Shown in pieces: positions 2,128-33,185 of a stretch of DNA of 64,000 nt (position 1 is the first letter of the stretch; every line of letters begins with the position of its first letter). A program made the translations under genes and the position numbers. Origin of the DNA: Plasmodiophora brassicae. Its lineage: Eukaryota. The notes beneath the pieces were generated by a model, which was not told where the DNA came from, made no database searches, and was given only the letters and a program-made list of their open reading frames with translations. Location of the stretch: positions 248,001 to 312,000 of the forward strand of contig CP145416.1 of NCBI GenBank assembly GCA_036867785.1, in the 5' to 3' direction.

Positions 2128-2601
2128 GGATCCAATTCTCTGTGCGGCCGGATCGTTATGGAAGTTGAAAGTGGTACCACGCACTCCGCAACGAATGCGG
2201 GTATCAGTTGGTCCAGCGTGTGATTCGCGCCGATGAGACGTGGTGTGAACGCCGCACTGGAGGAAAAGTCGTCGGCCGATGATGACGCAGTGGGAGACTA
2301 CTTCTGGCAGGAATGGGCGAGCGCGGCGAGCGCGGCGATGGTGTCGAGGCCAAGTCACCCGATGACGTCGATGACAACTTCTTTCTTCGGGAGTGGTTGG
2401 AGTTGTAGTCCGGGGCCCTATATTTAGCTCCTCATCACCTGCGTCAGCATCAGCATCCTCCAGATATTCACATGCGCCAGAGATTCATGTGTCGAGATAT
2501 GCGGGGAACGAGAGCACGCGATCACGTGCGCCGCTGATGGGAGAGCGGGGTAAGGGATCGATGGTGGATAAACGGCATTCGTCTATTGTGTCACCCGAGG
2601 C

Positions 2602-5600
2602 TTGACGGAAGACACTATAGTGGCCACTACGTGTCGTACGTTGATTCTCCGTGAACGACACCGACGACGACACGACATGGAGCTGACAAGCAGCAGCAGC
2701 AGCGGCGGCTCGACAAGCGCTACCATCGTTACGAACGCCGATGCGAGCATCCTGCCCAAGGCTAACAACCTTGACTCGACATCGATCCTGACGCTGCGCG
2801 AGGCGTACAACCGCTACGTCGCCATCTTCGAGGATCGGGAGGCGCAGCAGCCGCGGGGGCGTCGACTTCGTCCGCAAGGCATCCGGCTGTGCTTCACCGC
2901 CGTGCAGTTGAAGGCGATTGCCGAAAATCACCTGGACCTGGACGGCGGCGCCGAGGCGTTGACTGACGAATTGCTGGACGGATGGATCCGAGACCAGATC
3001 AACGCATTGCCCACCAGCCATGGGCTGCGTATTCAGGACATCGAGTCCAAGATCGCGGATGAGCTCTCGATGGATACCTCGATGTCGACCCTGCGAGATC
3101 AAATCGCGTCAATCCCGGACCAGCTGACGGCCATCCAGGACCGCCACGGTTGGAAGCTGAGCGAGACCGCTGGAGGACGCAAAGCCATGGGGCGCCTGAT
3201 CGCTGACTCGCTCCAGCCCGGCTACCTCCGCGGTCACGTCCAGGCCTGGATCAAGGAGGACAAGGCCGAACGTGAAGGCAATACCAGGGCGATCGTTCGC
3301 GAGGCGCAGGATTGGGCGAAGCACTTCGTCGCGATCGGACGCGCCCGCAACGCATCGATCAAGCGTCCTCGGAAGACGTGCTCCGAACTGCGACTCGCCG
3401 ACAAGCAGAGCAAGCTGACTCCCGCTGCGACAACTTCAGGTGGACGCCGCGTACCAGCCCATCGCCCTGTGCCCGCCAACCGGCAATCGGGCCGACATCC
3501 AGTGACCGTGAACGCTCCCAAGCGCAACCGCGAACCGACGGCGACAAGTGACAGCAGCCAGATGACGGGGACGACTGATGGCAAGCGCGATTTCAAATGC
3601 TGGCACTGCTCTGGGCCACATAAGATGTCGATGTGCCCAGAGAAGCCGACGAGAGAAAGGCGCAATGAGCTCGCACGTCATCATCGGCCTGCAGGCGGAC
3701 ATCATCCCGATGGACGTCGACCGATTAAAGTCGCCAAAACTCGCGCCTACACTGGGATCCAGCACGTGACACAGCAAGTAGAGATCGAGGGAAGGCGTAT
3801 CCCTTATGTTCTAGACTCTGGCTGTGATGGGGGAAACCTCATACCTGAACACGTTGCGAATGAGTTGAAGGGCGCCACGTTCGAGGTTATCGAGCCCCGA
3901 GATATCGCATCAGCCGACGACCAAGTCATTACCGTCAGCACCCGCATCGTCACCGTTCCAGTGACGAAACTCGAAACCAAAGCTGGGAATCTCACCCTGT
4001 ACCATGTTGCCTACTATGTCTGCGACGCTATTCCAATCATCTTATTCGGCGACACACTACTCTCTATGATCGGCATCAGTCCACGTCAGCAACTCGAGGA
4101 CATGATCGCATCCGGCACCACCGAGTTTGATGCCAGACTATCTGGATGCGCCATGTTCGATGTGGAGTCGTTCGACGCCGTCAGTGAAATCGTTGCAAGG
4201 ATGGCGACGTTGAGCGGCGACACGTATCAGGCGCCACATGTACACGATGCGGCGGAACCTACCTCCAGTGATGTCGACTTAGGGCCGATCAACATTCAAG
4301 AGATTGAGGCATCCCTCACCCGCCTGATACATCAAGCACGCCTCAACGGCATGTCTCGTCAAGGGGTTGCACGGCTACGACTCATCCTTCGACGACACGT
4401 CAACGAATTCCGCACACAGCTTGGTCAGGACGGTCCTGTCAACATCGAACCTATGATCACCAAGCTTCAACCGGACGCCACGCCGTACCGATGCAGACCG
4501 CGCTCCTACAACCCGAAGCAAAAGGAGTTCCTCGTCGAGATGATCAAGATGCTGTTGGAAAACAATCTGATCTACCTCAACATGAACTCCAGATGGGCGA
4601 GTCCCGTTCTTGTGGTCAAGAAACCGAACAGCAAGGGGTACCGCCTGTGCGTCGATCTGCGTCAGGTGAACTCGCGTACGGTACCAACTGCTTGGCCGAT
4701 GCCCAACATCGAGGCGGCTAGTCGGAAGCTGGCTGGCATGACCTGCTTCTTCACGATCGATGCCCACAAGGGGTTCCGGCTCATGCCAATTGCGAAGGAA
4801 TGCCAGGAGATCTTCTCGTTTATGACCGACGACGGCGTCTACACACCTACCAGGAGCATTCAGGGCGCGACCAACTCTGCCTTGCAGTTCCAGGCGCGGA
4901 TCGGGAAGATCTTCGACGACATGAAGCATCACCTCTTGATATGGATCGACGACCTGCTGGGATTCGCCAAAACGGAAGACATTCTACTGCATCAGCTTGC
5001 ACGTGTCTTGGAGCGAGCGCGCGAACGCAACTTGAAGTTCAACCCGGACAAATGCGTCCTATTCGCTCGAGAGCTGAAGTGGTGTGGGCGCATCTACTCT
5101 CGTGATGGAATCCGACACGATCCCGAACGAATCGAGGCGCTGACCAGCATGCCGCGTCCTAACACTTTCAAAGAGCTACAGCAGTTCATCTGGGCGGCCA
5201 ACTGGATGCGTACTAGTGTTCCCGGTTACGCGTACATCATCGCCCCGCTCCAGGAGCTGACGGACAAGGCGAACGAGGAGATGAAGAGAATCCAGTCTTC
5301 GTCACCTTCGTCGATTCGGTTACATGATCTTGGATGGACAGACCGGCACAGTAAGGCCTTCGAGGACATACGCTTTGCGCTGATCCAGCACGTCCAGCTC
5401 GCGTACCCGAAGTCTGATCACCAGACATGCTTGTTCACGGACGCCAGTGACCTAGCATGGGCTCCGGTTATTACCCAGATTCCGAGGGAGGACATCGACC
5501 TACCAGTTCATGAACAACGACACGAACCACTGGCTTTCTACGGCAAGCGGTTCTCTGGCGCTGAGTTGCGATGGTCAACACCGGAGAAGGAGGCAGCCGC

Positions 5601-5982
5601 CATCATCAAGGCGACTGAACGTGGTGACTTCCTTCTGCAGACGTCGCGTGAATTCCTCATGTTCTGCGACCACCGGAACCTCACGTTCATCTTCGCGAAC
5701 GACGCTGAGATGAAGAAGCACACCGCTCAGAAAATCGAGCGCTGGGCGCTACATCTCCAAGGGTTTGATTACCGTACAAAGGAGATCTCCGGCACTGCCA
5801 ACGTCTGGGCCGACCTGTTATCTCGATGGGGCGCAGGACGAATCGCACTGACGTGCCGGGCAACGCGCATCTTGCAGATGGACGATCTTCGCGTAACGCC
5901 GATGACGCATCCCGATTTCCAATGGCCGACCGAGACCGAAATTCGCGAATCGCAAAGGCTATTGTCGCGTGAAGAGAAGATC
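2602..5982 (+). mobile_element. Ty3/Gypsy gag-pol single ORF, truncated before integrase by a Copia LTR
   Basis: CWHCSGPHKMSMC zinc knuckle, LDSG protease, RT (LCVDLR, WIDD), RNase H (TDAS, EKEA, DHRNL, WADLLSR). Copia LTR starts at 5983. Confidence 0.92.
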
Positions 5983-6108
5983 TGTCGAACAACGTATCCA
6001 CTACGACCAGCAGCACATGCCTGCAGCACGTGAACGCCGTCACGCACTCCGCGACTCCGTGCCCGCCGGCGTTGGCAACCGTTACACCGTCGGCGACTAC
6101 GTCGCCAC

Positions 6109-6997
6109 TATAGCTCTGTATTTTTTTTTATTTGTATTATTCACCTGCTATATAATACACATATAATACACGGTCTACGAAATATTATACAGCGATAAAA
6201 TACACCCTGTGCCTATATATAGTGCCGACCACTGGGCAAGGGCCGCCAAGGCTGTGCAGTGTGCACGCTGTGGCTCGCTGACCTGCGGGATGCTGCCTGC
6301 GGGCTGCGCGCAGCCGCCACGGCCTCATTGCCAGCAAGCCTGCGTGCCTACGGGTTGTCGCCTGCCTCGATAACCATCTATCTACGCTGGCGTCGCTACT
6401 GGTGAAGATCCACAACCTCGTTACTAATGCCGCCGGTGGTGAGCGAAACCATAAGGCAGCGAAGCGGGTCCATTCGGCAACACGAGCCAGCTTGCAAGGG
6501 GCGTCTGTGATGAAGCAGACAGCTGTTGCATTCAATGCAAAGCAGCTGTTGAAAGAAATCAGTATGACGCGTTCCGATGACGCGTTTGTACAGAGGCTGT
6601 CCGCCTGTGGATCAGGGTCATTGTATTCGCAACGCGCTGCAGCAGACGAAGAAGCTCTCAATCTTGTTTTTGAGGACGAGGACGAGGATGAGGAGCTTGT
6701 CGGTCTCTCTGTCGAAAGCGTCATCGATCCTGCCACCGATATTGGGCTGGATAGCATCATCGCCCTTGATGCTGCGGAAGACATCGAAGCTGTTCGAGCC
6801 GATGACACCTTGATCAGAACGCGCGAGATAATTGCCCTGAGCGTCTGAGGCCCTGATCCATCTCGGAATGAATACAAACTTCTTTGAATGCATTTCCAAT
6901 AGGCTGTATTAAATACCTGTATTATCCACCAGTATTATACAGGTATTATACACTTTTTGTATTATACAGGACCTCGGGTGTATTATACAGAGCCATA
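6109..6997 (+). mobile_element. Non-autonomous hAT element with a transposase C-terminal remnant
   Basis: 8-bp TSD GTCGCCAC (6101-6108, 6998-7005). TIR TATAGCTCTGTA / TACAGAGCCATA. ORF 6402-6848 NAAGGERNHKAAKRVHSATRASL resembles the hAT dimerisation motif. Confidence 0.85.
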
Positions 6998-7107: not shown

Positions 7108-9815
7108 ATGGCCGAGCGCCAGGCGACGCCTAACACGGATGACGACCCGCTGCGTCATCTGTCGCTCGAGGAGATCGACACCCGAATTGCCGAAGCGGAG
7201 GCAACGATCGCCAGGCAGGAGAAGATCGACCGTCTCCGTGTCCTGCAGCAGCAGCTGGCGCGTCCGACCAGCTGTCCATCGACCCCGGCCATGCCGATCA
7301 TCGCCGAGGCGCACAGCCGAAGCGACGCAGGCCGACTGCCCATGCCCAAGTTCGACGGTACTCCCGACTCGTTCACGTCCTGGGTTCAGACAGCTGCACT
7401 CTGGTTTCGCAATCGTGGGTACGCGGACGTCATCGGGATCAACGAAGATGGCTCGCCGACTGCGACAACCGGTACGGCACACGACCCAGCTCTCGAGGCA
7501 GCCAGCCGCGCGCGAGATTCTACTCGTCCACATGCTGGACCACAAGATCGCGTCCGCGTTGTCTTTGTTTCAGGCAGGCTCGGCTGCCAAGTGCTGGCGC
7601 GTGCTGTTCCAGGCGTACAGCCCGTCGTCGCTGGCATCGGTCGTGCGCGCCGTCCGCGACCTCGTCACGGTCCAGCACATGCCCGGCGAGTCGGTCGCCA
7701 CGTACGCCGCCCGAGTTCAAGCAGCGGCCCATCGCGTCCGGTCGACGGTACCGACCGAGATGCTGTCCCTCACCGACGCATTGGTCGCCGTGCTCATCTT
7801 GGCCAACGCATCATCCGATCTCGACGCCGTCGTCGCTGGCCTGCACAATCGTGCTCTGGACACGCTGCCCAGTGTCTCCGAGGTCGTCGGGTCGTTGACA
7901 AGCGAGGAGATCAGGGTCCAAGACGTGCGGGACCGACACGACGCGTTCCAAACGGCCAACCGCTCCAGTTGCGCCACATCGACGCGTCCCCGTGGACCAC
8001 GACGCAACGAGTCCTGCGTCTTCCATCCCGGATCCAAGCACACTAACGGCGAATGCACGCTGCAACGACACATCTGGTACCGCGACAGCAACGCGAAAAC
8101 CAATACATCCTCACCAACGTCCAACGAGTATCCAACGTCTGGCGCTCATCCGGTCGATCCGGCGCCCGAGCCGATGCGTGCTTTGTCGGCACGCCACGCC
8201 ATCGACGTGTACGCGAACTCAGTAGGCCTACTGGACTCAGCGTGTTCCACGACGATGACGCCCCTGCGCCGACATCTCACCTGCTATCGCCAAGGCACCG
8301 GACCGGAAGTTGAGCTAGCCGATCTGTCGCGTACGACCACTTCCGGTCGAGGCGTGACGTCATTCGGCATGGATGTCCAGGCGACGAGTATCGATTCGCT
8401 GCACGTTCCCCGACTTGGCCAAGCGCTAGTATCAGTTGGCCAGCTCACCAGATCAGGTCACAAGATCGTGTTCGACGGCGATACCGCGAAGATCTACTCG
8501 GGGGCCAACTGGACGGCGCCCGTCGGCCAGCCAGTGGCCGTCAGTCAACGAGGACACGATAACCTGTACCGGATTCCATTATCCGCTCCAACCTCCGCGC
8601 CCGGCACACTTCATTCCGCCCGAGTCTGCTCCTTGATCGCATCCAGCGTCTCATGCCGCGTCGCTAAGGTCACCGCCGCAGCTCCAGCTGTCTGGCACGC
8701 TCGAACCGGCCACCTGGGTTACGGCAACCTGCGCATCCTGCACAAACGTTGTCGTGGCATGAAGTTCGACGGGCCAATCCCGAGGCCGCAAGATCGATGT
8801 CCATGCGCTGCATGTTTACTCGCCAAGGGCAAACGGTCATCATTCCCTCCCAGTACGTCGCGCGCGCGTCGTGTTGGCGATCTCGTCCATAGCGATCTGT
8901 CCGGACGGTGGCCTGTCGTCGGTGTCGGCGGCTTTGAGTACTACCAGACCATGCTTGACGATTCCTCTCGGTACCTGTCCGTCTATCTGCTACGTCGCAA
9001 ATCGGAGGCGCTCGACGTCATCACGCACTATGACGCGCGTCTTCGCAACCAGGAAGGACGTGGTATCCGGACGTTCCAGACTGACGGTGGCGGCGAGTAC
9101 AACTCCAAGGCGTGCGTCCTGTTCTACAACGAGTCCGGCATCCTGCACCGCAAATCTGTCCCGTACACGCCCGAGCAGAACGGCCGCGCTGAAAGCGTCA
9201 ACCACACGCTCTGCGGTATCGAAAGCTCAATCCGGTGCCACCCTAGCATGCCTGACTCCACGTGGCCCTGGTCGCTGTCCTACCCTGCGATACTGTACAA
9301 CATCCACCCGAGATCAGTCCTTCCCGGGCGTCGCACATCGTTCGAGGCTGCTCGTCGCGCCCTACCTAACATCTCGGCCCTTCGTGTCTACGGTTGCGAT
9401 GCCTATGCCATGCGACCACATCCAGCCACGAAGAAGCCGAGCAAGTTGGAGCCTCGTCGTGTTCGCGCTGTGTTCATCGGTTTCACGCCCGGCATGAAGG
9501 CTTGGCGGTTCTACGACGTGGACCGGGAAGACACGTTCGAGAGCACGACTGCCGAGTTCCTGGAGACCTCGTTCACGTTCGGCTTTGGAAGATCCAGCCC
9601 TGCTAGTTCATCATCAGCGCCACCGTCCAGTCCCGAGTCGAGCTCTGCGCCGAACGTTGACACGATCGTCCCGACGCCCGTCTCTTCCGACGCCGTCATG
9701 GCACCTCTACCATCGACGTCAGCATCCTCTCTCGCAGCATCCCCTCCCGAGCCTCCGTCACCTGCCGCTGCGTCATCGCCTTCCGAGATCGTCCGACCGT
9801 CGCGCTCACCGTCTC
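7108..9815 (+). pseudogene. Copia gag-protease-integrase (one frameshift near 7500)
   Basis: PKFDG gag motif, LLDSACSTTM protease, WHARTGH pre-integrase, VHSDL / TDGGGEY / PEQNGRAE integrase core. Confidence 0.9.
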
Positions 9816-9998
9816 TGTCACGACTGAGTCGTGTTGGCGACTCAGCCGGCACCAAATTGGGCTCCTTCGTAGCGCACTGGGTACAATAAACGTCCACGGC
9901 GCGGACCGACCTCAGTCGGTCAATCCGTGTGGTTGACTCATCGTGTTCGGTCGTCACATTTTGACCGACTAACCTTCTGTCGTCGTGTTGTCTCGACT

Positions 9999-10198
9999 CG
10001 TATCGTATTGTGCCGTATCGTATCGTATTGTGCCGTATCGTATCGTATTGTGCCGTATCGTATCGTATTGTGCCGTATCGAATCGTATTGTGCCGTATCG
10101 TATCGTATTGTGCCGTATCGTATCGTATTGTGCCGTATCCTTATCGTATTGTGCCGTATCGTATCGTATTGTGCCGTATCGTACCGTGCCGTACCGTT
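9999..10198 (+). repeat. 20-bp tandem repeat (CGTATCGTATCGTATTGTGC)n in the element 5' leader
   Basis: About 9 visible units. About 5 units in copy B at 29298-29415. Confidence 0.95.
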
Positions 10199-10224
10199 TC
10201 TATCGTTCGTATTGTATTGCATTC

Positions 10225-12771
10225 ATGGCAGGAGGCGATGGGTCGATTCCGTCATGGGCGGACGACGTCCCATCGTCCGCGAATCCGGATGTTGCGGGTG
10301 TGTCGGATTTTGCTCTCGGTTCCCTGTCGCAGCTGCACTTCGCGCGGGGTGTTCTGCCACTGGCGAATCATCTCCCTGCACGACCGCTCACCCCGCCTTC
10401 GCTCACTAGTACCGCTGCCGATTGGCCCGACGACTCTCTGTCCTCTTCGGACCCTCACTCCCCGCCTGCCTTATCGTCCCTACACGTTTCTGCCGCCTCG
10501 ACGTCTCTGCAGGACCCCGGCGGCGCGCCTCGGCATGACCCTGTCTCCTCGACGTCGCAGCATATTGGCGCTTCGTCCGTTGGGGCTCGGGTGCCGGCGC
10601 CACGGGTGTCTCCGGGCCCACCCTTAACGTCTATTGTTGTCCAGTCACAAGACATTCCGCGTTTTTCGGGAAGCGATGGTCTGTCGACGACGCGTTGGTT
10701 GACTGCGTTCTCTCGGATCACCCAGACGTCGTTAACGTCTACAAGTCCTCTATCCGGCGATGTGCAATGTGTCTTAACGACAGCCTTGCAAGGTCAGGCG
10801 CTTGAGACTTACCTCGACTTGCCTGCGGACGCGTCTATGGCGGACGTAGCGTCCGTCCTGCTCCATGACTTCCCGGGACCTTCGTTCAAGCAGGTTGAAG
10901 CGAAGTTTGACAACCTGAAGCAGACTGCAGGTGTCGCTCACCACGCACTGGCATTCCAACGCTTGTACAAGCACCTTCAACGACTTGACCCATTGTACAG
11001 ACTCAATCCGGCCCGCTTGGCGGAAAAGTTCCGCCTCTCGTTGAACCCTGCGCTCTCAGAAGCGCTGTTCTTCTACAACTTCAGAGACTACGACAAAGTT
11101 CTCGAGATGGCGGTTCATCTTGAGTCGAAATACCCAATCGCCGCCATCAACGCTGGCGGTGATGCAAGGGCACAACCCCTGGCTTGCCACTATTGTCGCG
11201 AAGTTGGGCATTTTATTGCGTCCTGCCCGAAGAGGCCACCGTGCCCGCACTGTCATAAGGTTGGCCACCGCTCATCGCTGTGTCCCGAGCGGTCCGGCAA
11301 CCCTCTCCACGTCACTGATCTGTTCCTTATGACGTCTCCCTCAATACCGCATCTATTGGTATCGGTACGCCTCGTTATCGGCTCACGCCGTGTCAACACT
11401 ATCGCCCTGTTAGACTGTGGTGCGACTTCCAACTTCATCGACTGGTCGTTCTGTCGTCACCATGAAATACCGGTTCGCTCTAAAGCGCGTACCATTCCTG
11501 TTCGCGTCATCGACGGGCGACACCTGTCTCCAGTAACTCAGGAAACCGTCCCGCTACGTGCTACCGTCGACGGATGTTTCGACAGCGATGTCGTCCTGAA
11601 CATGATCCACTCGCCTCAACACCCTGTCATTCTTGGGCTGCCTTGGTTGGCGGATACAAACCCAGATATCGATTGGCGTCAGCGCCGCCTACAGCGCCGC
11701 GGAGATACCCTCGTGGGGATGTCACGCCGTACAGGAGACGTCCATGAGTCTGGGTCCTTCGTCTCTTCGGCGGGACCATTTGCTAAGCGCGGGGATAGTC
11801 TCTCAGCTGGGGTCTCACCTCCTGCACGAAGCGTTCCTGCGCCTGCGTGTGCCATCCCTTCAGCTGAATCACTTGAAACGCTGCCGCTTACATCCGTGTT
11901 TGTCGACGGCAAGCTGGCTTCCGTAGCTAACGACGACCACCCGGAGTGCCACATTGCCATTGCTGCGATCGACGACAGGCCGAGCCCTTCCGCTTTCGAT
12001 TATGGTAGCATCCCGGGGGTCGCCGCCTTCAATGATACTGTTGCCCCCAGCCGCACCGATCTCTTATCATTGCCCCGTTCAGGCTCCGAGTCCACGCCCC
12101 TTATGTCCTCCTTCCGGAACTGGGGCCCCGTTCGACGAGGGGTGAGACGGCCTCTCCCGCCGCCCCCGCCGCCTCCCTCCAATGATGGCTTCCGAGACGG
12201 CCACAGCCTCAATCTTCTGATGTTCGCAACCTTTGTCGCCCTGACCTGGATCCTAGTTGGGTGGCCGTATTTTCCAATAGCACAGCTGTGTACGAGCGCC
12301 TCTGCGGAGCCCCCGCCCTTGAATGCGCCCGCCGAGTCCTTCTTTGAACCTTTTGCTACGCTAGAGGATGACCAGGTCTCATCAACCTTGATCGCGTTTC
12401 TCAACCCCGATCTCATGTTCCTGGACGCCGCCGCACGTGCGTTTGCCCACAAGCTACATCGACGACAGATTCGTTCACTCCAATTCCTTAGCGAAGTTGA
12501 TTTCGTTCATTGGACACCTGACGCCCTGACTCGTCGACTGGAGTACAGACTGTCGCCTAATGATGAAGCAGTTCTTGCTAGGCCTCACCAAATGCTTCCA
12601 ACCAGACAAGCCCGCAGCCCGTTCCCGGTGCGGCTAAAAGGGGACTATTATGTCACGACTGAGTCGTGTTGGCGACTCAGCCGGCACCAAATTGGGCTCC
12701 TTCGTAGCGCACTGGGTACAATAAACGTCCACGGCGCGGACCGACCTCAGTCGGTCAATCCGTGTGGTTGA
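10225..12771 (+). CDS. Gag-protease fusion with hydrophobic segment and RNase H remnant (about 848 aa)
   Basis: Two CCHC knuckles, ALLDCGATSNF protease, ILGLPWL, hydrophobic LLMFATFVALTWILVGW, then HKLHRRQIR...PDALTRR. Uninterrupted ORF ending inside the 3' LTR. Confidence 0.85.
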   Translation: MAGGDGSIPSWADDVPSSANPDVAGVSDFALGSLSQLHFARGVLPLANHLPARPLTPPSLTSTAADWPDDSLSSSDPHSPPALSSLHVSAASTSLQDPGGAPRHDPVSSTSQHIGASSVGARVPAPRVSPGPPLTSIVVQSQDIPRFSGSDGLSTTRWLTAFSRITQTSLTSTSPLSGDVQCVLTTALQGQALETYLDLPADASMADVASVLLHDFPGPSFKQVEAKFDNLKQTAGVAHHALAFQRLYKHLQRLDPLYRLNPARLAEKFRLSLNPALSEALFFYNFRDYDKVLEMAVHLESKYPIAAINAGGDARAQPLACHYCREVGHFIASCPKRPPCPHCHKVGHRSSLCPERSGNPLHVTDLFLMTSPSIPHLLVSVRLVIGSRRVNTIALLDCGATSNFIDWSFCRHHEIPVRSKARTIPVRVIDGRHLSPVTQETVPLRATVDGCFDSDVVLNMIHSPQHPVILGLPWLADTNPDIDWRQRRLQRRGDTLVGMSRRTGDVHESGSFVSSAGPFAKRGDSLSAGVSPPARSVPAPACAIPSAESLETLPLTSVFVDGKLASVANDDHPECHIAIAAIDDRPSPSAFDYGSIPGVAAFNDTVAPSRTDLLSLPRSGSESTPLMSSFRNWGPVRRGVRRPLPPPPPPPSNDGFRDGHSLNLLMFATFVALTWILVGWPYFPIAQLCTSASAEPPPLNAPAESFFEPFATLEDDQVSSTLIAFLNPDLMFLDAAARAFAHKLHRRQIRSLQFLSEVDFVHWTPDALTRRLEYRLSPNDEAVLARPHQMLPTRQARSPFPVRLKGDYYVTTESCWRLSRHQIGLLRSALGTINVHGADRPQSVNPCG

Positions 12772-12793
12772 CTCATCGTGTTCGGTCGTCACA

Positions 12794-15050
12794 GTCTCCT
12801 GATGACGTATCCACCGACGAAGATGATGATGACGCTGAAGATGATCCCGACTACGAAGGTTCGGCGTCCAGCAACGACTCTCCCAACGAAGCTGCCGACC
12901 CCGACGTCCACGACAATTCCGATGCTGCTGATATCGTTGACCACAATGTCATCGACGTGCCACGCCCTCGCCGATCGAATCGTCGTCGTCAACCGCCTGG
13001 TGAATGGTGGAAGGCGCCGGAGGCGGCCAATCGTTCGTCGACACGGTGGTCCTCGACGGTCGACGCCTGGTTCCAGAATCCGACCCTAACGTTCCCGACA
13101 CAGCGCCCTCCTCGTCGCTCCCGCCGACTGATCCGGCATTGGCAGCAGGTTGAGGAGCGCCGTCTGATCGATCAGGCCATCAGGTCCAACCGTCCGACAT
13201 GTCGCGGCGCCGCTGCCAAGACATGTCGAGCCAAGGTATCCGCCCCGATCGACCCAGCCCGTCTACCACGACCCGACCTGTCGAAGCTGAAAGCGACCGA
13301 CATTCCCGTACCCAACTCAATGGCCGATGCCCTCTCATCACCTTTCGCTGGCCACTGGTGAGACGCCGCCGTCACCCAGATGGCAACACTGGACGCCAAG
13401 GACACGTTCGGCCCGCTAATCGACCTGCCGAAAAGTAAGATCGCTGTTGGCGCCAAGTGGGTGTTCCGAGTGAAGTCCTCGCTCAGTGGCAACGGTGGCA
13501 TCCGCAAGTTCACCGCCCGACTCTGTGCTCAGGGCTTCCGACAACGCCCCGGCATCGACTTCGACGATACGTTCGCGCCGACCGCCCGTGCCACTGCGTT
13601 CCTCGTTATCCTAGCGCTCGCGGCGCAGCACGGCCTGCATCTTCGCCAGGTCGACTGGGTGGCCGCATACCTGAACGCCGACATGCTCCATGATGTTTAC
13701 ATTCGTCAGCCGGATGGCTTCACCGATCATCACGTCCCGTACCGAGTTCGTCAACTGCAAAAGGCCCTTTATGGAACGAAACAAGGCGCCGAACGTTGGT
13801 ACAAGACGCTTCGGGAGATGCTGTTATCACTCGGATTCGAATCGATCATCGCGGACCCCTGCGTCTTCCGGTACGATCGCGATGGAAAGTTCATGATCAT
13901 GTCGGTGCACACCGACGACGGTCTGCTGGCGTACAATGACGTCCCGTTCGCGGAATCCGTTCTCGAGAAGCTCTCCACGATGGCCGAGATCACCGATCAA
14001 GGTGAACCGTCGACCCTGCTTGGCATGCGCATCCGACGCGAACCTGGCACCGGCGCCATCACCCTTGACCAAGCCGAGTACATCGAGAAGGTGTTGAGCG
14101 ACTTCAACATGTCGCATTGTCATCCGGTCGACACGCCGCACCAGCCTGGCGTTCACCTATCAACGACAATGAGTCCACAAAGCGACCTCGACCGCGACGA
14201 AATGGCGACCAAGCCGTACCTCAAACTTATTGGCTGCCTGACATGGCTCGCCCATCGATGCCGTCCCGACATCGCGTACATAACGAATGTACTGGCCCAA
14301 TTCTCCTCGAATCCCGGCATCCAGCATTGGCGTGCGGGGCAACGCGTTCTTGAGTACCTCGCCGGCACCATGACGCACGGCATCCGATACGAACGCCAGC
14401 CCGAAGATCGTCTGATCGCATACGCCGACGCTGATTGGGCATCCGACCCTGACACGCGACGGTCGCGCTCCGGCCACATCATCCTGCTGGCTGGCGGCCC
14501 CGTGCACTGGCAGTCACGTCGCCAAGACCTGGGCGCAGTCAAAGTTAGCTTATCGTCCACACATGCAGAGATCAAGTCGCTGTGTGCTGTTACCCGCCAG
14601 CTGGCCTGGATCCGGTTATTCCTGACCGAAATCGGCTTCGCACGCTCCAGTCCGACGATCGTATACGAGGACAATCAAGGCGCGAAGGCCTGGTCTGGCT
14701 ATCGTCGGATGGATGATCGCACGAAGGACATCGAGGTGCAGTTTCACTACACCCGGGAGGCCGTCGAGGCCAGTTTGATTGTCGTCCACAAGTGCCCGTC
14801 CGCCGAGATGGCTGCAGACTACCTCACGAAGCCCGCTCTCAGCACCTCGTATCATGCGAACCTGCTCCTGGCCGGCATCCTCGACACAAGTCCCAGGCCG
14901 TGTGCTGCTGGAGGGGGCGTGTCGAACAACGTATCCACTACGACCAGCAGCACATGCCTGCAGCACGTGAACGCCGTCACGCACTCCGCGACTCCGTGCC
15001 CGCCGGCGTTGGCAACCGTTACACCGTCGGCGACTACGTCGCCACTGTAA
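12794..15050 (+). pseudogene. Copia reverse transcriptase and RNase H (in-frame TGA at 13359-13361)
   Basis: ARLCAQGF, LQKALYGTKQ, HTDD, YADADWA, YEDNQ, MAADYLTK. Confidence 0.93.
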
Positions 15051-16319: not shown

Positions 16320-16700
16320 TTGCGTCACTGACGAGCGAAGACATTCGCATTCGCGATGTTCGCGACCGTCAAGAATCGTTCCAGACGGCCAACCGATCCA
16401 GCTGCAATACGTCGACACGTACCCGTGGACCTCGATGTCACAGTCAAGTCGCTGTCTTGGCGACTCAACCGGCACCTAATTGGGCTCCTCCGCAGCGCAC
16501 TACTACAATAAACGTCCACGGCGTTGGACCGACCTCAGTCGGTCAATCCGTGTGGTTGACACATCTTGCTCTGTCGTCACATTTTTACCGACTACCCTTC
16601 GGTCGTACGCGTATCGTCTCGTCTCGTCTCGGCCCGTATCGACTCATATCGTATTGCACCGCGTCCTAACAACTGTTCCGTCTAGTGTATCATCGCAGCT

Positions 16701-17808
16701 ATGGCGGGAGGTGATGGGTTGATTCCGGCGTTGTCGGACTCGCCATCGTCCGCGAATCCGGATGTTGCAGCTGCGGCGGATGTTGCTGGCGCTATCGAGC
16801 TGCGCGACCTGAAGGCGGAGATCCTCGACCTCTTAGCCCAGTTGAAATTCGCGCATGGCTCGCTGCCTAGGCCCAGCCCCCCCCCCCCCCCCCCCCGCAG
16901 CGCCAGCTGTCTCGTCTCCCGAAGTGCGCAACGACTCGTCGGATTCTCCGGTCACCAGTGCTGTGCCTTCCCTATTGCCTCTCCACGCTTCTGTGGCTTC
17001 GTCTCTGCCGAATTCTGTCGCCCCGTCGACGCTGCATCCCGTGTCCCCGCCGCCGCCGCCTATTGTTGTCCTGTCCCACGATATCCCGCGATTTTCGGGG
17101 GCGGACGGTCTGTCGACGATGCGTTGGTTGACCGCCTTCGCGCGGATCACCCAGACGCCGTTAACGTCTACCAGTCCGCTTTCCGACGCTGTGCAATGCA
17201 TCTTGACGACGGCCTTGAAAGGATACGCCTTGGAGACTTATCTTGACCTTTCCGAGGACGTGTCAATGGCGGACGTGGCATCCGCCCTGCTTCATGATTT
17301 TCCGGAGCCGTCGTTAAAGCGGGTCGAAGCTGATTTTGACAATTTGAAGCAGACTTCCAGTGTGGTTCACCACGCGCGGGAGTTCCAGCGCTTGTACAAG
17401 AAGGTTCAACAACTCGACCCCTTGTATAGGCTGAGTCCGTCCCGTTTGGCGGAAAAGTTCCGCTTGTCCTTGCACCCTGCACTTTCTGATGCCCTCTTCA
17501 TTTACAACTACACCGAGTACGACAAGATGTTCGAGATGGCGATCCATCTCGAACCGAAGTACCCGACCGCCGCTGTCAACGCTATCGAGGTCGGAGGGGC
17601 GCAACCTTTGGTCTGCCACTATTGTCGCGAGGCTGGACATTTCATTGCGTCCTGCCCCAAGCGACCTCCGTGCCAGCACTGTCACAAGGTTGGTCACCGC
17701 TCCGCGCTGTGCCCCGAGCGGCCTGCCGCTGCTGGTCCTCCGTCGCCCCCACCCAGCGCCAGCATCCCGCAGGCTGGTCCCCCGGGAAATGTGCCCGGGC
17801 GTCTGTGA
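16701..17808 (+). CDS. Gypsy Gag (apparent frameshift in the poly-C run near 16877-16896)
   Basis: MAGGDG start as in copies A and B, DIPRFSG, two CCHC knuckles. Confidence 0.85.
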
Positions 17809-17827
17809 ACGGGTTCCTCAGTCGCCC
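17784..17827 (+). promoter_or_regulatory. -1 ribosomal frameshift signal
   Basis: G GGA AAT heptamer in the gag frame, 6-nt spacer, GGGCG...CGCCC hairpin. Pol is in the -1 frame. Confidence 0.75.
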
Positions 17828-20800
17828 AGTAAACATTTCGTTTGGTTCCGAACCCGACTTTCTTCATGTTACGGATTTATTCTTTACGTCGGCTACATCT
17901 ATACCACATCTATTGGTTCCGGTCTGTCTCGCTATTGGCTCACGTCGCATCAGTACGCTCGCCTTGTTAGACTGTGGCGCGACGTCCAATTTTATCGACT
18001 GGTCGTTCTGTCGTCATCACGAAGTGCCTGTTCGCTCCAAATCGCGTGCAATTCCGGTTCGCGTCATTGACGGCCGTCATCTGGCCCCAATTACTCAGGA
18101 AACCGCCCCGCTACGAATCACCGTCGACGAATGTTTCGACAGTGACGTCGTCCTCAACATGATCCATTCGCCGCAGCATCCTGTCATCCTCGGCCTGCCG
18201 TGGTTGGCGGATACAAACCCTGACATCGATTGGCGGAGCCGCCGTCTCCAGCATCGCGGCCCTCGCCTCGCGGGGATCTCAATCCCGGCAGGAGACCTCC
18301 CTGCGTCTACGTATGCAGTTGATTCGGCGGCATCAGTCGAACCATTGCCGACTGCCTCAGCATCTGAGGTAGCCGAGGTGGAGGTAATTGCCCTCCCTGA
18401 GTTGGCTTCTGACGACGAGGACGACGACGATTACTCCGAGTTCGGGACCGTCCCGGCTGCGGGCGTCGATAGCTCTAGCGCTTCCGTCATCGCTCCCGAT
18501 TGCCTCTCGGAGGTCGCTGTCACTGATACGGTGGCCGCCGGTCACAGTGATCCGTCTGCTGCTGTTGTCGACAGCTCTAGCTCTCCCGCCCTCGCGCATG
18601 CCTGCCTCTCCGAGGTCGCTGCCACTGCTACTGTGGCAGCGTGCCACAACGACCCGTTATCATCGTTCCCCTCGGGCCCCGAGCCGTCGTGCGTCCGGCA
18701 CCGTGGACCCGTCCGTCGAGGGGCGGGACAACGCCTCTCGCCGCCTCGCCCCTCTGGCGGGCTTCGTGGTCGCCACATTATCAATCTTTTGATGACTGCA
18801 TCCTTGGTCGCCCTGGCCTGGGTCCTTGGGTGGACTTATCTTCCATTCACGCGGCTCTCTTCCGGTGCCTCTGCGGAGCCCCTGATCTCGAACGCCTCCG
18901 ACGAGTCCTTCTTTGCGCCCTTGGTCTCACCAGACGGTGACCCGGGGTCATCAACCTCGATTGCGTTTATCAGCGCTGAGCCGTTTCTGGATGCTATCGT
19001 TGACGACGCAGCTTGTTACCTTCTGCATTATACTTGGACCGAACTCGACTCGGACTCAGTCTCCGGGCCTGCGCTTCCTGACGCCTATCGTGAGTTCTCG
19101 GACGTGTTCGCCACTGGCAGCCCGGCGTGCCTGCCTCCTCACCGCGCTTCCGATTGCCCCATCGATCTTAAGCCCGGCAAGGAGCCACCATTTTGTCGGC
19201 TATATGGTCTCTCCCAACGAGAGCAGGTGGCCCTCAAGCAGTATCTGGAAGCCAATTTAAAGTCGAATTTCATTCGTCCTTCCCGTTCTTCGGCCGGTGC
19301 GCCGATTCTGTTTGTACGCAAGAAAGACGGCTCGCTGCGACTTTGTGTCGATTATCGCGGCCTCAATTCTGCCACGATCAAGAACCGGTATCCACTGCCT
19401 CTTATTGACCAACTTCTTGCCAACCTTAGTCGGGCCACGATCTTCACGAAAATCGACCTGCGCAGCGCGTATAATCAAATTCGTATCCGCGAAGGGGACG
19501 AGTGGAAGACGGCGTTTCGCACCCCGTATGGACTCTTCGAATATTTGGTTATGCCGTTTGGCCTCGCAAACGCACCGGCTTCGTTCCAGTCGTTCATGAA
19601 TGATATGTTCAAGGATTACCTCGACCAGTTCGTTGTCGTATATCTGGACGACATCCTTATTTTTTCTGCGAACGTCGCCGACCATGAACACCATGTGCGC
19701 CTCGTCCTGGAACGACTTCGGGCTAGCAGTCTTACCGCTAATATGGAGAAGTGCGTTTTCGGCGCCAAGGAGGTTGAGTTTCTCGGCTACCTCGTTTTTC
19801 GAGACGGACTGCGCCTCGACCCTGCCTGTATCGACACTATCCTGTCTTGGCAACCGCCACGAGATATCCATGGTCTCCAAGTATTCTTGGGATTCGCCAA
19901 TTTTTATCGCAAATTTATTCCTCACTTCGCGGAAATTGCTCTACCACTCACAAACCTGACGCGTGACGGTGTCGCCTTTATCTGGGATGCTGACGCTCAA
20001 GCTGCATTCGGCTCTCTGAAGGTTGCGTTCACATCGGCACCTGTCTTGGGCCATTTCGATCCTCATCAACCGTGTGATGTTGAGACCGACGCCTCAGACT
20101 TTGCCATCGCTATGGTCCTTTCGCAAAAGGGCGGCGCAGATGGGGAGTTGCACCCGATCGCCTACTTCTCGCGGAAGCTGATTGCTGCCGAGATTAGCTA
20201 TCCCATTTACGACAAGGAACTCCTGGCGGTTGTGGAAGCGTTCACTAAGTGGCGGCAGTTCCTCGACTCAGATCAGCACCAAACTGTCGTGCATAGCGAC
20301 CATCGTAACCTCGTCCACTTCATGTCTACCCACAAGTTGAACAGACGTCAGGTTCGCTGGTCTCAACTGCTTAGCGAATTCGATTTCGTGATTCATCATC
20401 GTCCGGGGCGACTTCATGGGAAGCCGGACGCCCTCACTCGTCGTCCGGAATACCAACCTTCGCCTGGCGACGAAGAAATTCTAGCAATGTCTCAACAGCT
20501 GCTTCCACCGCATCGCTTCTTCCGCCCGGACCCAGCTATTCTCTTCCTCCAGACCGGTACATCAGGCATCTCCCTTGTCGAACGTGTTCGTCGCGAACAA
20601 GCCGATGACCCCTTCGTCCAGAAGACGTTATTATCGCTGGACGGGCCTCGTGGACGACGTTTCCGCGTTGCCGATGGTCTCTTATACAACGGAACCGCTC
20701 TCGTCGTCGCTGGTGAGGCCTGCAAGCTGGAAGTTCTGCACAGCCTTCACGACAACGTTACCGCCGGTCATTTTGGGGTTCGCAAGACATTGCAGCTCGT

Positions 20801-22039
20801 CAAGCGCGAGTTCTGGTGGCCCAAGATGTCCTCGTTCATCAAGGGTTACGTGGCGACCTGTGACACGTGTCGCCGCGTCAAACCTCCTCGCCATCGACCA
20901 TCCGGCCTGCTACTTCCGCTACCAATTCCAACCGCTCTCTGGTCCTCCATCTCAATGGACTTTATCGTCAAGCTCCCCTCCTCCCGTGGCTATGACTTTG
21001 TACTGGTCGTGGTCGACCGTTATTCGAAGATGGCCCACTTTGTGGCGTGTCGAGAATCCATTTCCGCGGATCAGCTTGCCGATCTGTTTCTTCAGAACGT
21101 GTTCCGTCTGCATGGCCTGCCCGACGACATTGTCTCGGATCGCGGACCTCAGTTCGTATCGTTGTTCTGGAAGCACCTCCTATGCCGTCTCGGCGTTGAA
21201 CGCCATCTGTCATCATCCCGCCATCCCGAATCTGATGGCCAGACCGAGCGCGTCAACCAGATATTAGAGCAATACCTTCGCTGTTATGTGTGCTACCTGC
21301 AAGACGACTGGGAGCCATTATTGCCGCTGGCCGAATTCTCTTACAATAACGTCGACCATTCGTCCACTGGAATGTCTCCCTTCTTCGCGAACTACGGCTA
21401 CAACCCTCAGCTACGCGACCCTCGTCCTTGCAAACACGGTAGCTCCAATCCCTCTGCCGATGAACGCGTGGAGAACTTGACGGCCATTCGCCGTTACCTA
21501 CACCGCCAACTGCATCGTGCTGTCAGCACCATGAAACGAGCTGCGGATCGGAAACGCCGACCTCATCCCGACTTCAAGATCGGGGAGTCGGTCATGCTCC
21601 GTCGAGGGGCAATTGCGACTGGCCGGCCATGCGGTAAGCTGGATGTCCAAATGCTCGGCCCTTTCGAAGTTAGTCGCATCGTCAATCCGGTCGCCTACGA
21701 ACTCCTGCTCCCGGCATCCTTCCGCATCCACAACGTCTTCCACGCATCCCAACTGGAACCGGACGTCCCGAACGTGATACCCCATCGTGTGCAGCCTCCG
21801 CCACCCCGATTCTGCTCGACGACGACGACCAACCGCTGTTCATCGTGAAGGAGGTCCTGGACTCTCGATACCGTGCTGGTAAGCTGCAGTATTATATCGA
21901 CTGGGAAGGCTACCCTGCATCCGAGCGCACCTGGGAACCCGCCTCCAACTTGCAGGGCACCGGCGGATTCGATCGCCTGCTCGCGGCATTCCACGCTCGG
22001 TACCCAGACAAGCCCGGACCCCGTCTTCGACGCCCGTAA
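17784..22039 (+). CDS. Gypsy Pol (PR-RT-RH-IN-chromodomain; frameshift near 21805)
   Basis: LLDCGAT, YLDD, ETDAS, HHCC, SMDF / SDRG / DGQTERVN, GPF, chromodomain YYIDWEGY...TWEP in the shifted frame. Confidence 0.93.
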
Positions 22040-23178
22040 AAGGGGACTATTATGTCACGGTCGAGTCGCTGTCTTGGCGACTCAGCCGGCACCTAATTGG
22101 GCTCCTCCGCAGCGCACTACTACAATAAACGTCCACGGCGTTGGACCGACCTCAGTCGGTCAATCCGTGTGGTTGACACATCTTGCTCTGTCGTCACACT
22201 CGACGTAACGAGTCCTGCGTCTTTCATCCGGGATCGAAGCACACGAATGGCGAATGCAGCCTGCAGCGGCACATCTGGCATCGCGACATCAACAACAACA
22301 ACAACAGCAATACATCGTCACCAACGTCCCACGAGTATCCATCGTCTGGCGCTCTCCCGACAGATCCGGCATCCGAGCCAACGCGCGCATTGTCGGCACG
22401 CCACTCCATCGACGCGAGCGCGAGCTCAATGGGACTATTGGATTCGGCCTGTTTCACAACGATAACACCCCTGCGCCAGCATCTCAGCCGTTATCGACGC
22501 GTCCCTGGACCAGAAGTCGAACTAGCTGATTTGTCGCGAACGACTACGTCCGGTCGGGGCGTGATGTCATTCGGCAAGGATGCCCAGGCGATGAGTATCG
22601 ACTCACTGCACGTCCCACGACTTGGTCAAGCGCTTGTTTCAGTCGGACAACTCACCCGATCAGGCCACAAGATCGTATTCGACGGCGCCACTGCGACCAT
22701 CTACTCGAAGGACAGCCGGACGGCACCCACCGGGCAGCCAGTGGCGATCAGCACCCGTGGACAAGACAACCCCGGATCGCACTATCAGCTCCATCCACCG
22801 ACAACACGCAACCGACTGTACCAGCCTGTTCCCTGATCGTATCCGACATCGCCTGTCGCGCCGCAAAGGTCACCACTGCATCTCCCGATCTGTGGCACGC
22901 ACGAATGGGCCATCTCGGTTATGGCAATCTGAACATCCTGCGGAACCGCTGTCGTGGTATGAAACTTGACTGCCCCATTCCCAAGCGTTCGCACCGGTGC
23001 CCATGCGAAGCCTGCCTCCTCGTCAAAGGTAAGCGTTCCTCATTTCCTCCGAGTAAGTCGCGGCACTTCGTGTCGGCGATCTCGTGCACAGCGACTTATC
23101 CGGTCGGTGGCCCGTTGTCGGCATTGGCGGCTTCGAGTACTACCAGACGATGCTGGACGACTCCGCGCGCTACCTGAC

Positions 23179-24498
23179 TGTCACGATCAGGCAAGCTGAT
23201 GCAACGAACGCTTTGACGGACTGGCGAAGTCCGTCGCGGGGTTCGGGATTTATTCAGTCATCACAGAATAGTCCTCTTCTAGCGATTGTGTCTCCGCCGG
23301 TTTCGGGAGCGAGGGCCAGGTTTATCGGGATATCGAGCATGAAATTCAGCAATCTCTTGGCCCAGGCCTCCTGTCCCATGGAGATTGCCCGCGGGTTCCC
23401 AGGTGCGATCGGACGGGGAGTATCCTTCCCAATCTATGAGATATTGCAAACGCCCCGACCGGTATCGGGAATCCAAGATCGACTTAACGATGAACAGGGG
23501 CTGGTCGTCATCTTCCAATACAATGGGCGGCGGCGGTGGCTGTTGGCGATGTGGAAGGACATTAGGCGTATACGGTTCCAGCTGTGACACATGGAAGACG
23601 TTATGTAGGCGCGAGGTAGGAGGCAGCTTCACTTCATATGCGACAGGGTTAACTGTGCGAACAACTTGGAAGGGTCCCAGCAGACGGTCATCCAGTTTCC
23701 CGCACGGGCGGCCAGTCGATAAGGTTCCACGCCTGAGCATGACGAGATCATCCACCTGCAGTGGTGGTGGTTCGCGGCGACGGCGATCCGCAGAGCGCTT
23801 CATAGCGTCGACCGCCCGTTGCAGTTGGCCCTTCAAGTAGCGGCGAACCTTCTCAAGGAATTCGGCGCGCTCATCGGCGGCTGGGTTACAGACTTGGCCA
23901 TTCCTGGGTCGAGGCTCCGTCACCCTTGGATGAAACCCGTAGTTGGCGAAAAACGGCGACATGCCGGTGGCCGAATGGTCGGCGTTGTTGTACGCGAACT
24001 CGGCCATAGGCAGAAGTTGCATCCAGTCGTCCTGCATGTAGTTAACATAACAGCGTAAGTATTGTTCGAGGATCTGGTTCACGCGTTCCGTCTGGCCGTC
24101 GGATTCCGGGTGCCGGGATGAAGACAAGTTCCGTTGGATACCAAGACGGTCCAGTAAGTGCTTCCAAAAGGCCGACACGAACTGGGGCCCCCGGTCGGAG
24201 ACGATGTCGTCCGGTAGGCCATGCAGGCGGAATATCTGCTGCAAAAACAGGTCGGACAGCTCGACCGCTGTGAGGGTCTCCTTGCACGGAATGAAGTGGG
24301 CCATTTTCGAAAACCGGTCGACGACGACGAGGACCGAATCGTAGTTGTCGGAAACTGGAAGCTTGACAATTAGATCCATTGAGATCGATGACCACAGAAA
24401 ACTCGGCAAGGGAAGAGGCAGCAGGAGCCCGGACGGTTTGTGGCGCGGAGACTGCTTCTCAGACAAATGTCGCAGGATGAGACGTACAGTTTGACGAA
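23179..24498 (-). mobile_element. 3' fragment of a second chromovirus family (integrase, chromodomain, about 87-bp LTR)
   Basis: ORF 23279-24523 has the integrase core, GPF and YLIDWEGY..TWEP. PPT AGAAGAGGACTATTC precedes LTR 23179-23265 (TG..CA). Confidence 0.9.
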
Positions 24499-26068
24499 TG
24501 TCGAACTCCATATCCAGCAGCACACTCGTGCAGCAGCGCCGCCCGCGATGATGTAACGTGCACCGCGTCTCACGTCTACGACGTTGCCCGTCACACCCAA
24601 TATCTTCGCTCTATATCCATCAATATATCTCACTCTGATTTCGTCGTTTCAGATTAACAGTCGTAACCGCGCTCTGGGCGTTTCGCTCGCGTCCAACGTC
24701 ATGGCCGATCGCGGCCGAACGGCGGAATCAGATGTCCAAGTTCTCGACGCGCAGCTCGCTGAGGCCGAGCGACAGGAGAAGATCGCGCGCATCGCATTCC
24801 TGCGACAGCAAACCGCATCGTACTCCTGCATCGCCACGACGCCGACGACGCAGTCTCGCCCAACCATTGTGGACGGCGTAGTGCGTCCAGGTACAGATCG
24901 CGTGCCTCCGCCTCGGTTCGACGGCAAGCACGAATCGTTTGCCGCTTGGGCGCCCGCCGCCGCGTCTTGGTTTACCAACCGTGGATTCGCGGGAATTGTC
25001 GGCATCGACCTGGACGGATCGCCGACTCTGAGTATCCCCGACAATGTGGACGCGGATCTGGAGGCAACTGCTCGGGAGATACTCTTGTTTCAGATGGTCG
25101 ACGAGACCGTTCTGATCGGCTACAACTTGCTGTACGCCGGTACATCGGCGCAATGCTGGCGCGCTCTCTTCCGCATGCTGCGACCTTGCACGTTTTCGTC
25201 TGTCATTCGTGCTTCTAAAGATTTGTTCAGTGTTCGACAGCAAGCCGGTGAATCGGTCGCCTTGTACGCGGCTCGTCTGCAAGCCGCTGCCCAACGTTTC
25301 CGTACAACAGTCCCGAACGACATGCTTCACATGACGGATTCCTTCCTGGCTGTCCTGATGGCTGGCAACGCTTCATCAGAATTGGACACGGCCGCATCCA
25401 ACCTGCACAGTCGTGGACTCGAACCGCGGCCTACTGTCACTGAGGTCCTACTGTCACTGAGGTCGTGTCCACGCTCACATCAGAAGAGCAGCGCATTCAA
25501 GAGGCTCACGCTGACCGGGAGATATCGTTCGCAACGGCGAACCGTGCAAGCGCCACCGCACACCCGATTAAGGCTCCCGAACGCGATGGACTGCGCGTCC
25601 TACATACGTCCTTTAGGAAGCTGCACACGAATGGCAACTGTTTCCTACAGCGCTCGTTGTGGCGGACGACATCGAATACATCGTCGCAACCTGATCAGTA
25701 CGTCCCGGTTCGCGCCATGTCTGCCCGTCACCCCGCCGTAGACAACAGTTCCGTCGGCCTGCTCGATTCTGGATGTTCCACCACAATGACGCCCCTGCGC
25801 GAGCATCTCGGCGCTTACCGACATGTCGCCGGACCGACGGTTGAACTTGCAGACCTGTCTCGTACGACCACTTCCGGACGTGGCGTGACGTCATTGGGCG
25901 CTGATCAGTCCCAGATGACGCCTATCGATTCGCTGCACGTCCCACGACTCGGCCAAGCGCTCGTCTCCGTTGGACAGCTCACCCGATCCGGGCACAAGAT
26001 CGTCTTCGATGGGCCCAACGCGACCATCTATTCCAAGGACAACTGGACGTCCCCTGTCGGGACCCCGC
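24499..26068 (+). mobile_element. Ty1/Copia copy 3 (diverged; 5' LTR, gag, PR; truncated)
   Basis: LTR 24499-24651, same PBS, ATG at 24701, LLDSGCSTTM. 17-bp tandem duplication 25431-25464 causes a frameshift. Confidence 0.9.
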
Positions 26069-26605
26069 TAGACCCCGGCCGCACCGACTTTCCTGTTCTG
26101 GTTGCTGGTGCCCGTGGCACTGATCCTGTCGTGTGGAATGCCATCTCAAAATATATTCTGCGTTGTTTTGAAGTTGATTTGTTCTCGAAACTTAGAATCG
26201 GGTGTGCATTCAAAAGGATCCGTATTAAATTGCAGTGCCCCGCCGGTGCGTTCTACGCGATCGTCGAGGAATTTGAACTGACGCCACGGTGGACATCAGC
26301 TGGAAGCCTGGTCATTGATGGTGCAACTGGCGCAACCATTCGAAGCATGCTGGGGCCCACTTGTCTTCAACGGTCGTTCGTGTCGTACGAGGCTACTGTG
26401 GCAGAGGACTCAGCTGTCAAAATCCGGTGGACGTCGACCGTGTTGCGCGACGACGCTGGCACTGCAACTGCGTTCGAAGTTAGCTGGCTAACGATCACGT
26501 TGATCTGCCGAGCTAGATCGACTATCGACGTTAATCGCATGACTCCGCGTATTGCAATTTAATGATACAGGCACCCTGTGCTCTCATACTGTCTAACTCT
26601 TGTGA

Positions 26606-33139: not shown

Positions 33140-33185
33140 CATAGGTACGGCGCAGTTTTGATACGGTAGGGGTCTTGGTTGAGCG

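Follow-up and report, generated by a model that had tools for sequence, protein, structure and literature searches.

Can a long terminal repeat (LTR) retrotransposon that has lost reverse transcriptase (RT) and integrase still move as a family, and if so, what does the reading frame that it keeps do for it? This question is raised by a 64-kb stretch of the Plasmodiophora brassicae genome (positions 248,001 to 312,000 of contig CP145416.1, assembly GCA_036867785.1; hereafter the window), in which we confirm the positions of two copies of a short element, copy A (9816-12793, + strand) and copy B (26780-29598, - strand). We refer to this element as the satellite and to the chromovirus family represented at 16436-22198 (+) as its likely helper. 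Here we report that the satellite family is real and recently mobile, and that its open reading frame (ORF) appears to be under selection along the transposing lineage. We consider it probable that the satellite is a selfish, semi-autonomous LTR retrotransposon whose own ORF acts in cis.

The Deleted Form Transposes as a Unit

A DNA search of the assembly gave 90 matches from the best 40 of 45 candidates, and locus counts are lower bounds. With coding sequence at >=92% identity as the criterion, there are at least 17 satellite loci, at least 11 of them with two LTRs. Ten of these 11 carry a perfect 5-bp target-site duplication (TSD), distinct from locus to locus, and the eleventh has a single TSD mismatch. 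The copies are 95-99.8% alike, RT and integrase are missing from all satellite loci, and a search for the 3' deletion junction, with 23 of 23 candidates scored, recovered this region at 16 loci. It is therefore the deleted form that moves as a unit, as the first-pass annotation had concluded from the different TSDs, matching LTRs and common loss of RT and integrase in copies A and B. The counts exclude two older relatives, a 290-nt fragment (C19) and two LTRs, one broken (C16) and one diverged (C12). A domesticated gag-derived gene would be a single fixed, immobile locus; what we found is at least 17 dispersed loci with LTRs and TSDs, with no fixed, LTR-less domesticated locus among those resolved.

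The helper has 7 near-full loci, with both frames open in 2, so that the genome-wide comparison proposed in the first-pass annotation stands at 17 or more to 7. LTR pairs with 0-1 mismatches make up 11 of 11 in the satellite and 4-5 of 6 in the helper, and these equally low values indicate that the two families were active in the same period.

The satellite family lands in retroelement clusters. One copy is inserted in another satellite copy (L063:2559-6716) and one in the integrase region of a helper (L078:2373-6186), and a helper gag is the insertion site of a satellite solo LTR flanked by a TSD (L086:2922-3064). A further copy, which retains both LTRs and has a perfect TSD, lacks capsid and protease, and its spacer-helix region is duplicated in tandem (L061:3488-4147).

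Selection on the Reading Frame and the Protein

We compared 18 rows (17 loci and one internal duplication) piecewise with copy A, dropping large rearranged parts of C7 and C11. Insertions and deletions (indels) present in two or more rows preserve the frame in 8 of 8 cases, seven in the spacer and one in the LTR, whereas 11 of 14 private indels shift it (Fisher P=0.001). Without two triplet-run cases, 6 of 6 shared indels are in frame (P=0.003-0.018 under microhomology nulls). Leader lengths, which are non-coding, differ from that of copy A by a multiple of three in just 4 of 11 copies. Independently of the indels, only 1 stop occurs among 326 substitutions where 9.3 are expected (P=0.001). 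These results support selection on the frame along the transposing lineage. Because changes inherited through transposition keep the frame and damage accrues after insertion, each satellite copy would seem to need its own translation for its own replication, a pattern unlike that expected of a protein serving only as a shared good.

Constraint at the amino acid level appears confined to part of the protein. Across capsid, zinc knuckles and protease, 19 of 38 shared substitutions are synonymous against 10.8 expected (P=0.004; 17 of 36 with twin rows removed), and no change affects any of the 11 knuckle and catalytic residues: the eight knuckle ligands are invariant in all rows covering them (14-15 of 18), and the DCG protease motif is invariant in 13 of 13 covering rows. 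Downstream of the protease, 12 and 20 stops interrupt the two alternative frames. We regard capsid, knuckles and protease as apparently constrained as protein, and the tail as apparently constrained for frame, not sequence.

An older decayed relative shares the Gag-protease fusion plus 15 nt, at a synonymous divergence (dS) of 0.37 and a nonsynonymous to synonymous ratio (dN/dS) of 0.32 (confidence interval 0.23-0.42). The gag tree places it with the satellite (93/95); the protease tree does not resolve the grouping. The satellite copies themselves appear to be mosaics, as the four-gamete test is violated by 686 of 3916 site pairs, with 9% failing at distances below 200 nt and 23% above 1000 nt. 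Such growth of incompatibility with distance is what template switching between copies predicts.

Origin of the Satellite and Identity of Its Helper

The helper copy in the window consists of gag, a predicted -1 frameshift and a pol region running from protease through RT, RNase H and integrase to a chromodomain, with two frame breaks in this copy. Its Pfam domains (RVT_1, RT_RNaseH, rve, SH3_Tf2-1 and Chromo, E 2e-14) follow the chromovirus order with a C-terminal chromodomain. Among named relatives of the helper Pol, those of highest identity (70% and 63%) are labeled Plasmodiophora brassicae. A GGGAAAT slippery site (17784) followed by a stem, together with the -1 frame of pol, suggests that -1 frameshifting would occur there. 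In the satellite, 139 nt of helper sequence including GGGAAAT are replaced by 11 nt, and the net loss of 128 nt (3n+2) joins the gag and pol frames. Gag is thus fused to protease through loss of the frameshift cassette, as had been annotated, and the fusion would give excess protease. The description of a Gag-protease-only element proved too narrow, since about 240 amino acids (aa) of the helper spacer between protease and RT are also retained, hydrophobic helix included. From this spacer the satellite passes directly, still in frame, into the C-terminal 51 aa of RNase H, which are 65% identical to the helper's and include another gap of 8 codons. The annotation was thus right that the RNase H tail remains in frame, but the last junction, from RNase H to the sequence before the polypurine tract (PPT), leaves the helper pol frame.

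The R region, primer site and PPT all match between satellite and helper, while none of four other autonomous families matches all three. Because these features are common to these two only, among the five families compared, we take the chromovirus family at 16436-22198 to be the likely helper, in line with the dependence proposed originally. In the satellite, the primer site has a 10-bp pairing with LTR nt 99-108; a corresponding pairing exists in the helper and other families, and in another family of the genome this pair is changed on both sides. The pairing suggests self-priming and predicts the 5' end of the RNA.

Satellite and helper share 79% DNA identity in the interior (dS 0.7-1.1) and 77% identity in the capsid, and they appear to be old sisters (dS about 0.8). 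DNA and protein searches of this assembly returned no closer autonomous parent (best 40 of 45, 111 of 126 and 23 of 23 candidates). We also considered recombination between helper and satellite in U5, since four LTR sets (B, C15, C18 inner and C6) have a helper-identical U5, as might arise by strand transfer from helper RNA. An older relative has the same U5 and the four U5 differences are located in, or at the base of, a hairpin loop, so ancestral retention explains the identity and we did not count it as evidence of co-packaging.

Transcription

At least half of the satellite's sequence words occur in 18 of 24 listed sequencing runs, none of these 18 being recorded as RNA. For RNA, which the first-pass annotation had suggested checking, four of the 24 runs, from four studies, were mapped over 18900-38600. 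Contigs of 1.5-2.5 kb over the satellite were present in all four, and the satellite is transcribed. The same four runs contain spliced joints in a neighboring host gene and no cover of 30069-31382. In two of the four, records span the junction between Gag and protease, and the contigs also cover helper sequence. The host gene used as the control (34000-38600, -) has multiple introns and a DUF3384/HEAT region, is spliced in all four runs and is, we presume, tuberin-like. An integrase-chromodomain fragment of another gypsy family (23237-24498, -) is overlain by contigs of about 5.2 kb in three of the four runs, suggesting that a full-length relative of that family is transcribed.

Organization of Copies A and B

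Copy A is inserted in a copia element, between its integrase and RT regions, with its TSD, GTCTC, at 9811-9815 and 12794-12798. A 130-nt direct repeat at 5983-6112 and 14920-15049, 99% identical and beginning TGTCGA, likely represents the LTRs of this host copia. The 5' LTR of copy A (9816-9958, 143 nt, TG...CA, AATAAA at 9885) contains the R start predicted from primer-site pairing at 9914. The primer site (9961-9970), of the putative self-priming type, is complementary to LTR nt 9914-9923 and identical in the helper. The leader, 105-333 nt long among 13 satellite copies, contains a 20-nt tandem array (9998-10187).

The single 848-aa ORF of copy A (10225-12771) encodes, in order, a low-complexity N terminus, a capsid domain (aa about 137-310, 10633-11154), two CCHC zinc knuckles (11185-11283), the in-frame junction that replaces the helper frameshift region (11293-11303), and an aspartic protease (11305-11724, DCG at 11413). 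The spacer follows, with a 78-nt in-frame segment (12004-12081) missing in copy B and the C10 copy, then the hydrophobic membrane-helix-like segment inherited from the helper spacer (12205-12264; 19-aa Kyte-Doolittle mean 1.89), the RNase H C-terminal remnant (12448-12600) and a read-through of the PPT (12635-12650, same sequence as in the helper) into the 3' LTR (12651-12793), which contains the last 39 codons and the stop. Satellite ORFs terminate 119-121 nt into the 3' LTR, about 20 nt beyond the predicted R start and hence at the predicted 3' end of the RNA. Copy B has an 822-aa ORF (29270 to 26802, -) and a TSD that reads TTCGC in the orientation of the element and GCGAA on the + strand. 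Both copies thus keep the open frames of 820-850 aa previously noted, with the 78-nt difference in frame. Their LTRs are 143 nt long and differ within the element by 0 (A) and 1 (B) mismatches.

Pfam detects a zinc knuckle and a retroviral protease in the satellite ORFs and no RVT or rve match in those of A and B; the helper alignment also skips RT and integrase. A capsid model built from nine sequences (aa 136-312) has a pLDDT of 89, and in the structural comparison each of the ten top-ranking matches is a capsid of the retroelement type, the nearest being PNMA2, dArc and PEG10. PNMA2 is the top match (probability 1.0, TM 0.57-0.60; best E 0.0025, none <0.001). A sequence search of solved structures, with the capsid alignment as query, gave no match. 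The satellite thus probably encodes its own capsid, as first proposed, judging from the modeled fold; both zinc knuckles and the protease motif are intact as well. A full-length protein search returned just two weak matches, and a search of representative proteins returned nothing beyond fragments (98% and 70%) and protease matches of a generic kind.

Proposed Mechanism and Alternative Explanations

We propose that satellite RNA would be translated end to end into a Gag-protease-tail protein, and that this translation would help the same RNA to enter particles shared with the helper chromovirus. The helper would supply RT, RNase H and chromodomain integrase, and would recognize the common putative self-priming site, PPT and LTR ends. 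Protein production, cis action and co-packaging with helper proteins are the inferred parts of this model. A cis effect of a fused ORF is reported for the mouse intracisternal A-particle (IAP) element 1-delta-1 (PMC6466679).

Several observations weigh against this interpretation. Only 5 of the 17 loci are fully open (816-850 aa), the remaining 12 being broken, interrupted or partial: one is interrupted by an insertion without other lesion, one is split by a satellite copy, and ten are frameshifted, internally deleted or fragmented. Ten of the 11 private frameshifts are 1-nt changes, some in short base runs, and may be assembly errors. When 1-nt private indels are removed, the shared-private contrast gives P=0.33, although the in-frame and stop-deficit tests remain. 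In capsid, knuckles and protease, the ratio of nonsynonymous to synonymous changes (N/S) is not significantly different for shared and private substitutions (Fisher P=0.16), and amino acid constraint was not detected after the protease (P=0.21) or in the N terminus (P=0.87). The sequence of the older relative ends behind the protease, so that it may have been autonomous. The low dN/dS against the helper (0.06-0.19) was rejected as proof of function: the RNase H remnant is among the parts with such values (0.19), and much of this constraint is therefore probably older than the loss of pol. The RNA support consists of contigs, which carry no strand, level or ends and whose depth does not rank genes. 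Finally, Ty1 Gag is reported to lack cis preference (PMC3945221).

The first-pass annotation had looked to damaged copies and a dN/dS near 1 as signs of an unselected frame. Damage is indeed widespread, but N/S as a fraction of neutral is 0.66 for shared and 0.90 for private changes overall, and the number of damaged copies is no proper test, since any copy deteriorates once it has inserted. Its contrast with lesions in every other retroelement holds for those checked in the window (two frame breaks in the helper; the host copia interrupted by copy A and a stop; a gypsy element at 2572-6033 cut off), but not genome-wide, where open frames also occur in several further families and in two of the seven helper loci.

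Why the tail is kept open is a separate question. An early stop would leave a long 3' untranslated region and lead to decay, or would lose the hydrophobic helix; escape from nonsense-mediated decay or a need for the helix is the likeliest explanation of the frame constraint, and a UPF1 gene is present in the genome. A membrane-helix-like segment lies in the protease-RT spacer in four of five chromovirus families here (window 18772-18830; pol frames of L088, L089 and L091/L099). Its 19-aa hydropathy, the sole measure used, is 1.9-2.8 in these families, and its position differs between families. No such helix was found in any of the 82 database relatives (of 122) that have both anchor motifs, where the maximum hydropathy is 1.49, and the spacer is 445-533 aa long here versus a median of 236 in database relatives. 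A related chromovirus (L090:1222-6471, -) has gag and pol in one 1749-aa frame, in which a CCHC knuckle and a hydrophobic spacer helix were not found. We tentatively raise the possibility that chromoviruses here have a Pol membrane anchor between protease and RT, with particles assembling on a membrane, and that the satellite's deletion of the frameshift puts this anchor on every Gag precursor, so that its RNA is delivered during translation to the membrane where particles assemble and scarce helper Gag-Pol is captured. Ty1 RNA is reported to reach its assembly site co-translationally via the signal recognition particle (PMC3945221), an analogy that makes a membrane-targeting role plausible. 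If true, the satellite would be a parasite that wins by placement, within an env-less gypsy lineage with an integral-membrane Pol; a real helix in Pol would add something new to what is known of particle assembly in gypsy elements. The literature searched contained no account of a transmembrane segment in the chromovirus protease-RT spacer.

The frame might instead be translated for RNA stability only, being open to the 3' LTR so as to evade nonsense-mediated decay, with a dispensable protein and packaging by helper Gag. The tail fits this well: it is constrained in frame rather than in sequence, its stop lies at the predicted 3' end of the RNA, the alternative frames after the protease are closed by stops, and UPF1 is present. 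For the tail alone, RNA stability is about as likely as a helix function. Selection on frame only, however, requires neither the synonymous excess in capsid, knuckles and protease nor the 11 invariant knuckle and catalytic positions, and we consider it rather unlikely as an account of the whole ORF.

Another explanation is that the satellite is a young deletion derivative, with an ORF open by inheritance and youth and unselected since RT and integrase were lost. The similarity of the copies and the damage already present in most of them fit such youth, and the dN/dS of the RNase H remnant suggests that pol was lost late on the branch. The stop deficit, the shared indels and three fixed joins or gaps that are all in frame (Gag-protease, spacer to RNase H tail and the 8-codon gap) already disfavor this account, which we regard as improbable.

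To the same small degree, the satellite could be a mutualist giving Gag and protease in trans to a common pool, as in the Cereba/Quinta model published for gag-only partners (PMC11302176, PMC9744471), and the 77% identity of the capsids is compatible with such pooling. Supply in trans alone would let frameshifted copies spread to several loci, yet none of 11 frameshifts has spread, an argument that is weaker if the 1-nt indels are assembly errors.

The defective-interfering element or restriction factor envisaged in the first-pass annotation, here taken as host-kept or of the Ty1 p22 kind and poisoning helper particles through a variant capsid or excess protease, is the least probable, since, although satellite sequence is inserted in two helper copies, excess protease causes premature processing in HIV (PMC2259377) and defective endogenous retroviruses outcompete helpers in cattle (PMC10924933), it has no support here beyond the lower-bound ratio of 17 to 7 loci, whereas helper copies are as young as satellite copies and were inserting in the same period, no fixed domesticated locus was seen among those resolved, the satellite depends on the helper, and selection on transposition-inherited changes is predicted by benefit to the element itself.

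Other Elements

We asked whether a second Gag-protease-only family exists; among 18 related-family loci the only candidate was one truncated locus, at which an LTR pair was not observed (L093:3198-5138, -), a 646-aa frame with Gag, a knuckle, two protease-like motifs and no RT, whose gag is nearly identical to that of the L089 family. The window also contains a short element with long terminal inverted repeats, by eye resembling a miniature inverted-repeat transposable element (31925-32266), and GGTTT-rich inverted-repeat elements, apparently nested (33062-33860).

Relation to Known Systems and Significance

The satellite has the following features of the semi-autonomous Gag(-Pro) class: two LTRs with a TSD, multiple insertions, no RT or integrase, a constrained gag-protease ORF and an autonomous partner with LTR ends, primer site and PPT in common. 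The Tf1/sushi group comprises self-priming chromoviruses. Like these, the satellite has a 10-nt primer site pairing with the predicted RNA 5' end, and its helper has a chromodomain integrase; a difference is the long protease-RT spacer with a hydrophobic helix. TR-GAG and RLG_Quinta are plant tRNA-primed lineages. They resemble the satellite in having a single gag ORF, LTR ends, primer site and PPT in common with a partner, and transposition shown or inferred, but lack a protease (PMC8704663, PMC11302176). The satellite is not a strict TR-GAG with a Gag-only ORF, as its frame continues beyond Gag through protease and spacer into the RNase H tail.

RLG_Sabrina_SA of wheat likewise has two LTRs, an intact GAG-Pro ORF, no RT or integrase and a long co-evolution with its autonomous partner (PMC9744471). 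It differs in numbering thousands of copies, compared with at least 17 loci here, in a putatively self-priming chromovirus system of a protist, and in the satellite the partner's -1 frameshift is removed and pol remnants stay in frame up to the 3' LTR. Pol-less Athila elements of Arabidopsis are also non-autonomous, with intact gag ORFs under purifying selection (PMC2410132); here there is no env, protease is kept and selection can be split into frame and amino acid components. In IAP 1-delta-1, an internal in-frame deletion created a fused ORF reported to aid retrotransposition in cis, but this is an endogenous retrovirus whose deletion takes part of gag and pol and which is near-identical to its helper (PMC6466679), compared with a dS of about 0.8 for the satellite.

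The family was undescribed in the literature searched, and repeat libraries in the supplements of genome papers may already contain it; dozens of near-complete assemblies of the species are reported (bioRxiv 10.64898/2026.10.14.759018). Helper-dependent Gag-protease elements are already known, and as far as the literature was searched this is the first in a protist chromovirus. With the satellite, semi-autonomous elements of the Gag-protease type, so far described from plants and mice, would extend to a putatively self-priming chromovirus of a rhizarian. Its small, countable set of copies offers an unusually clean sign of frame selection at each round of retrotransposition, apparently in cis, a point that bears on TR-GAG, Quinta and Sabrina as well.

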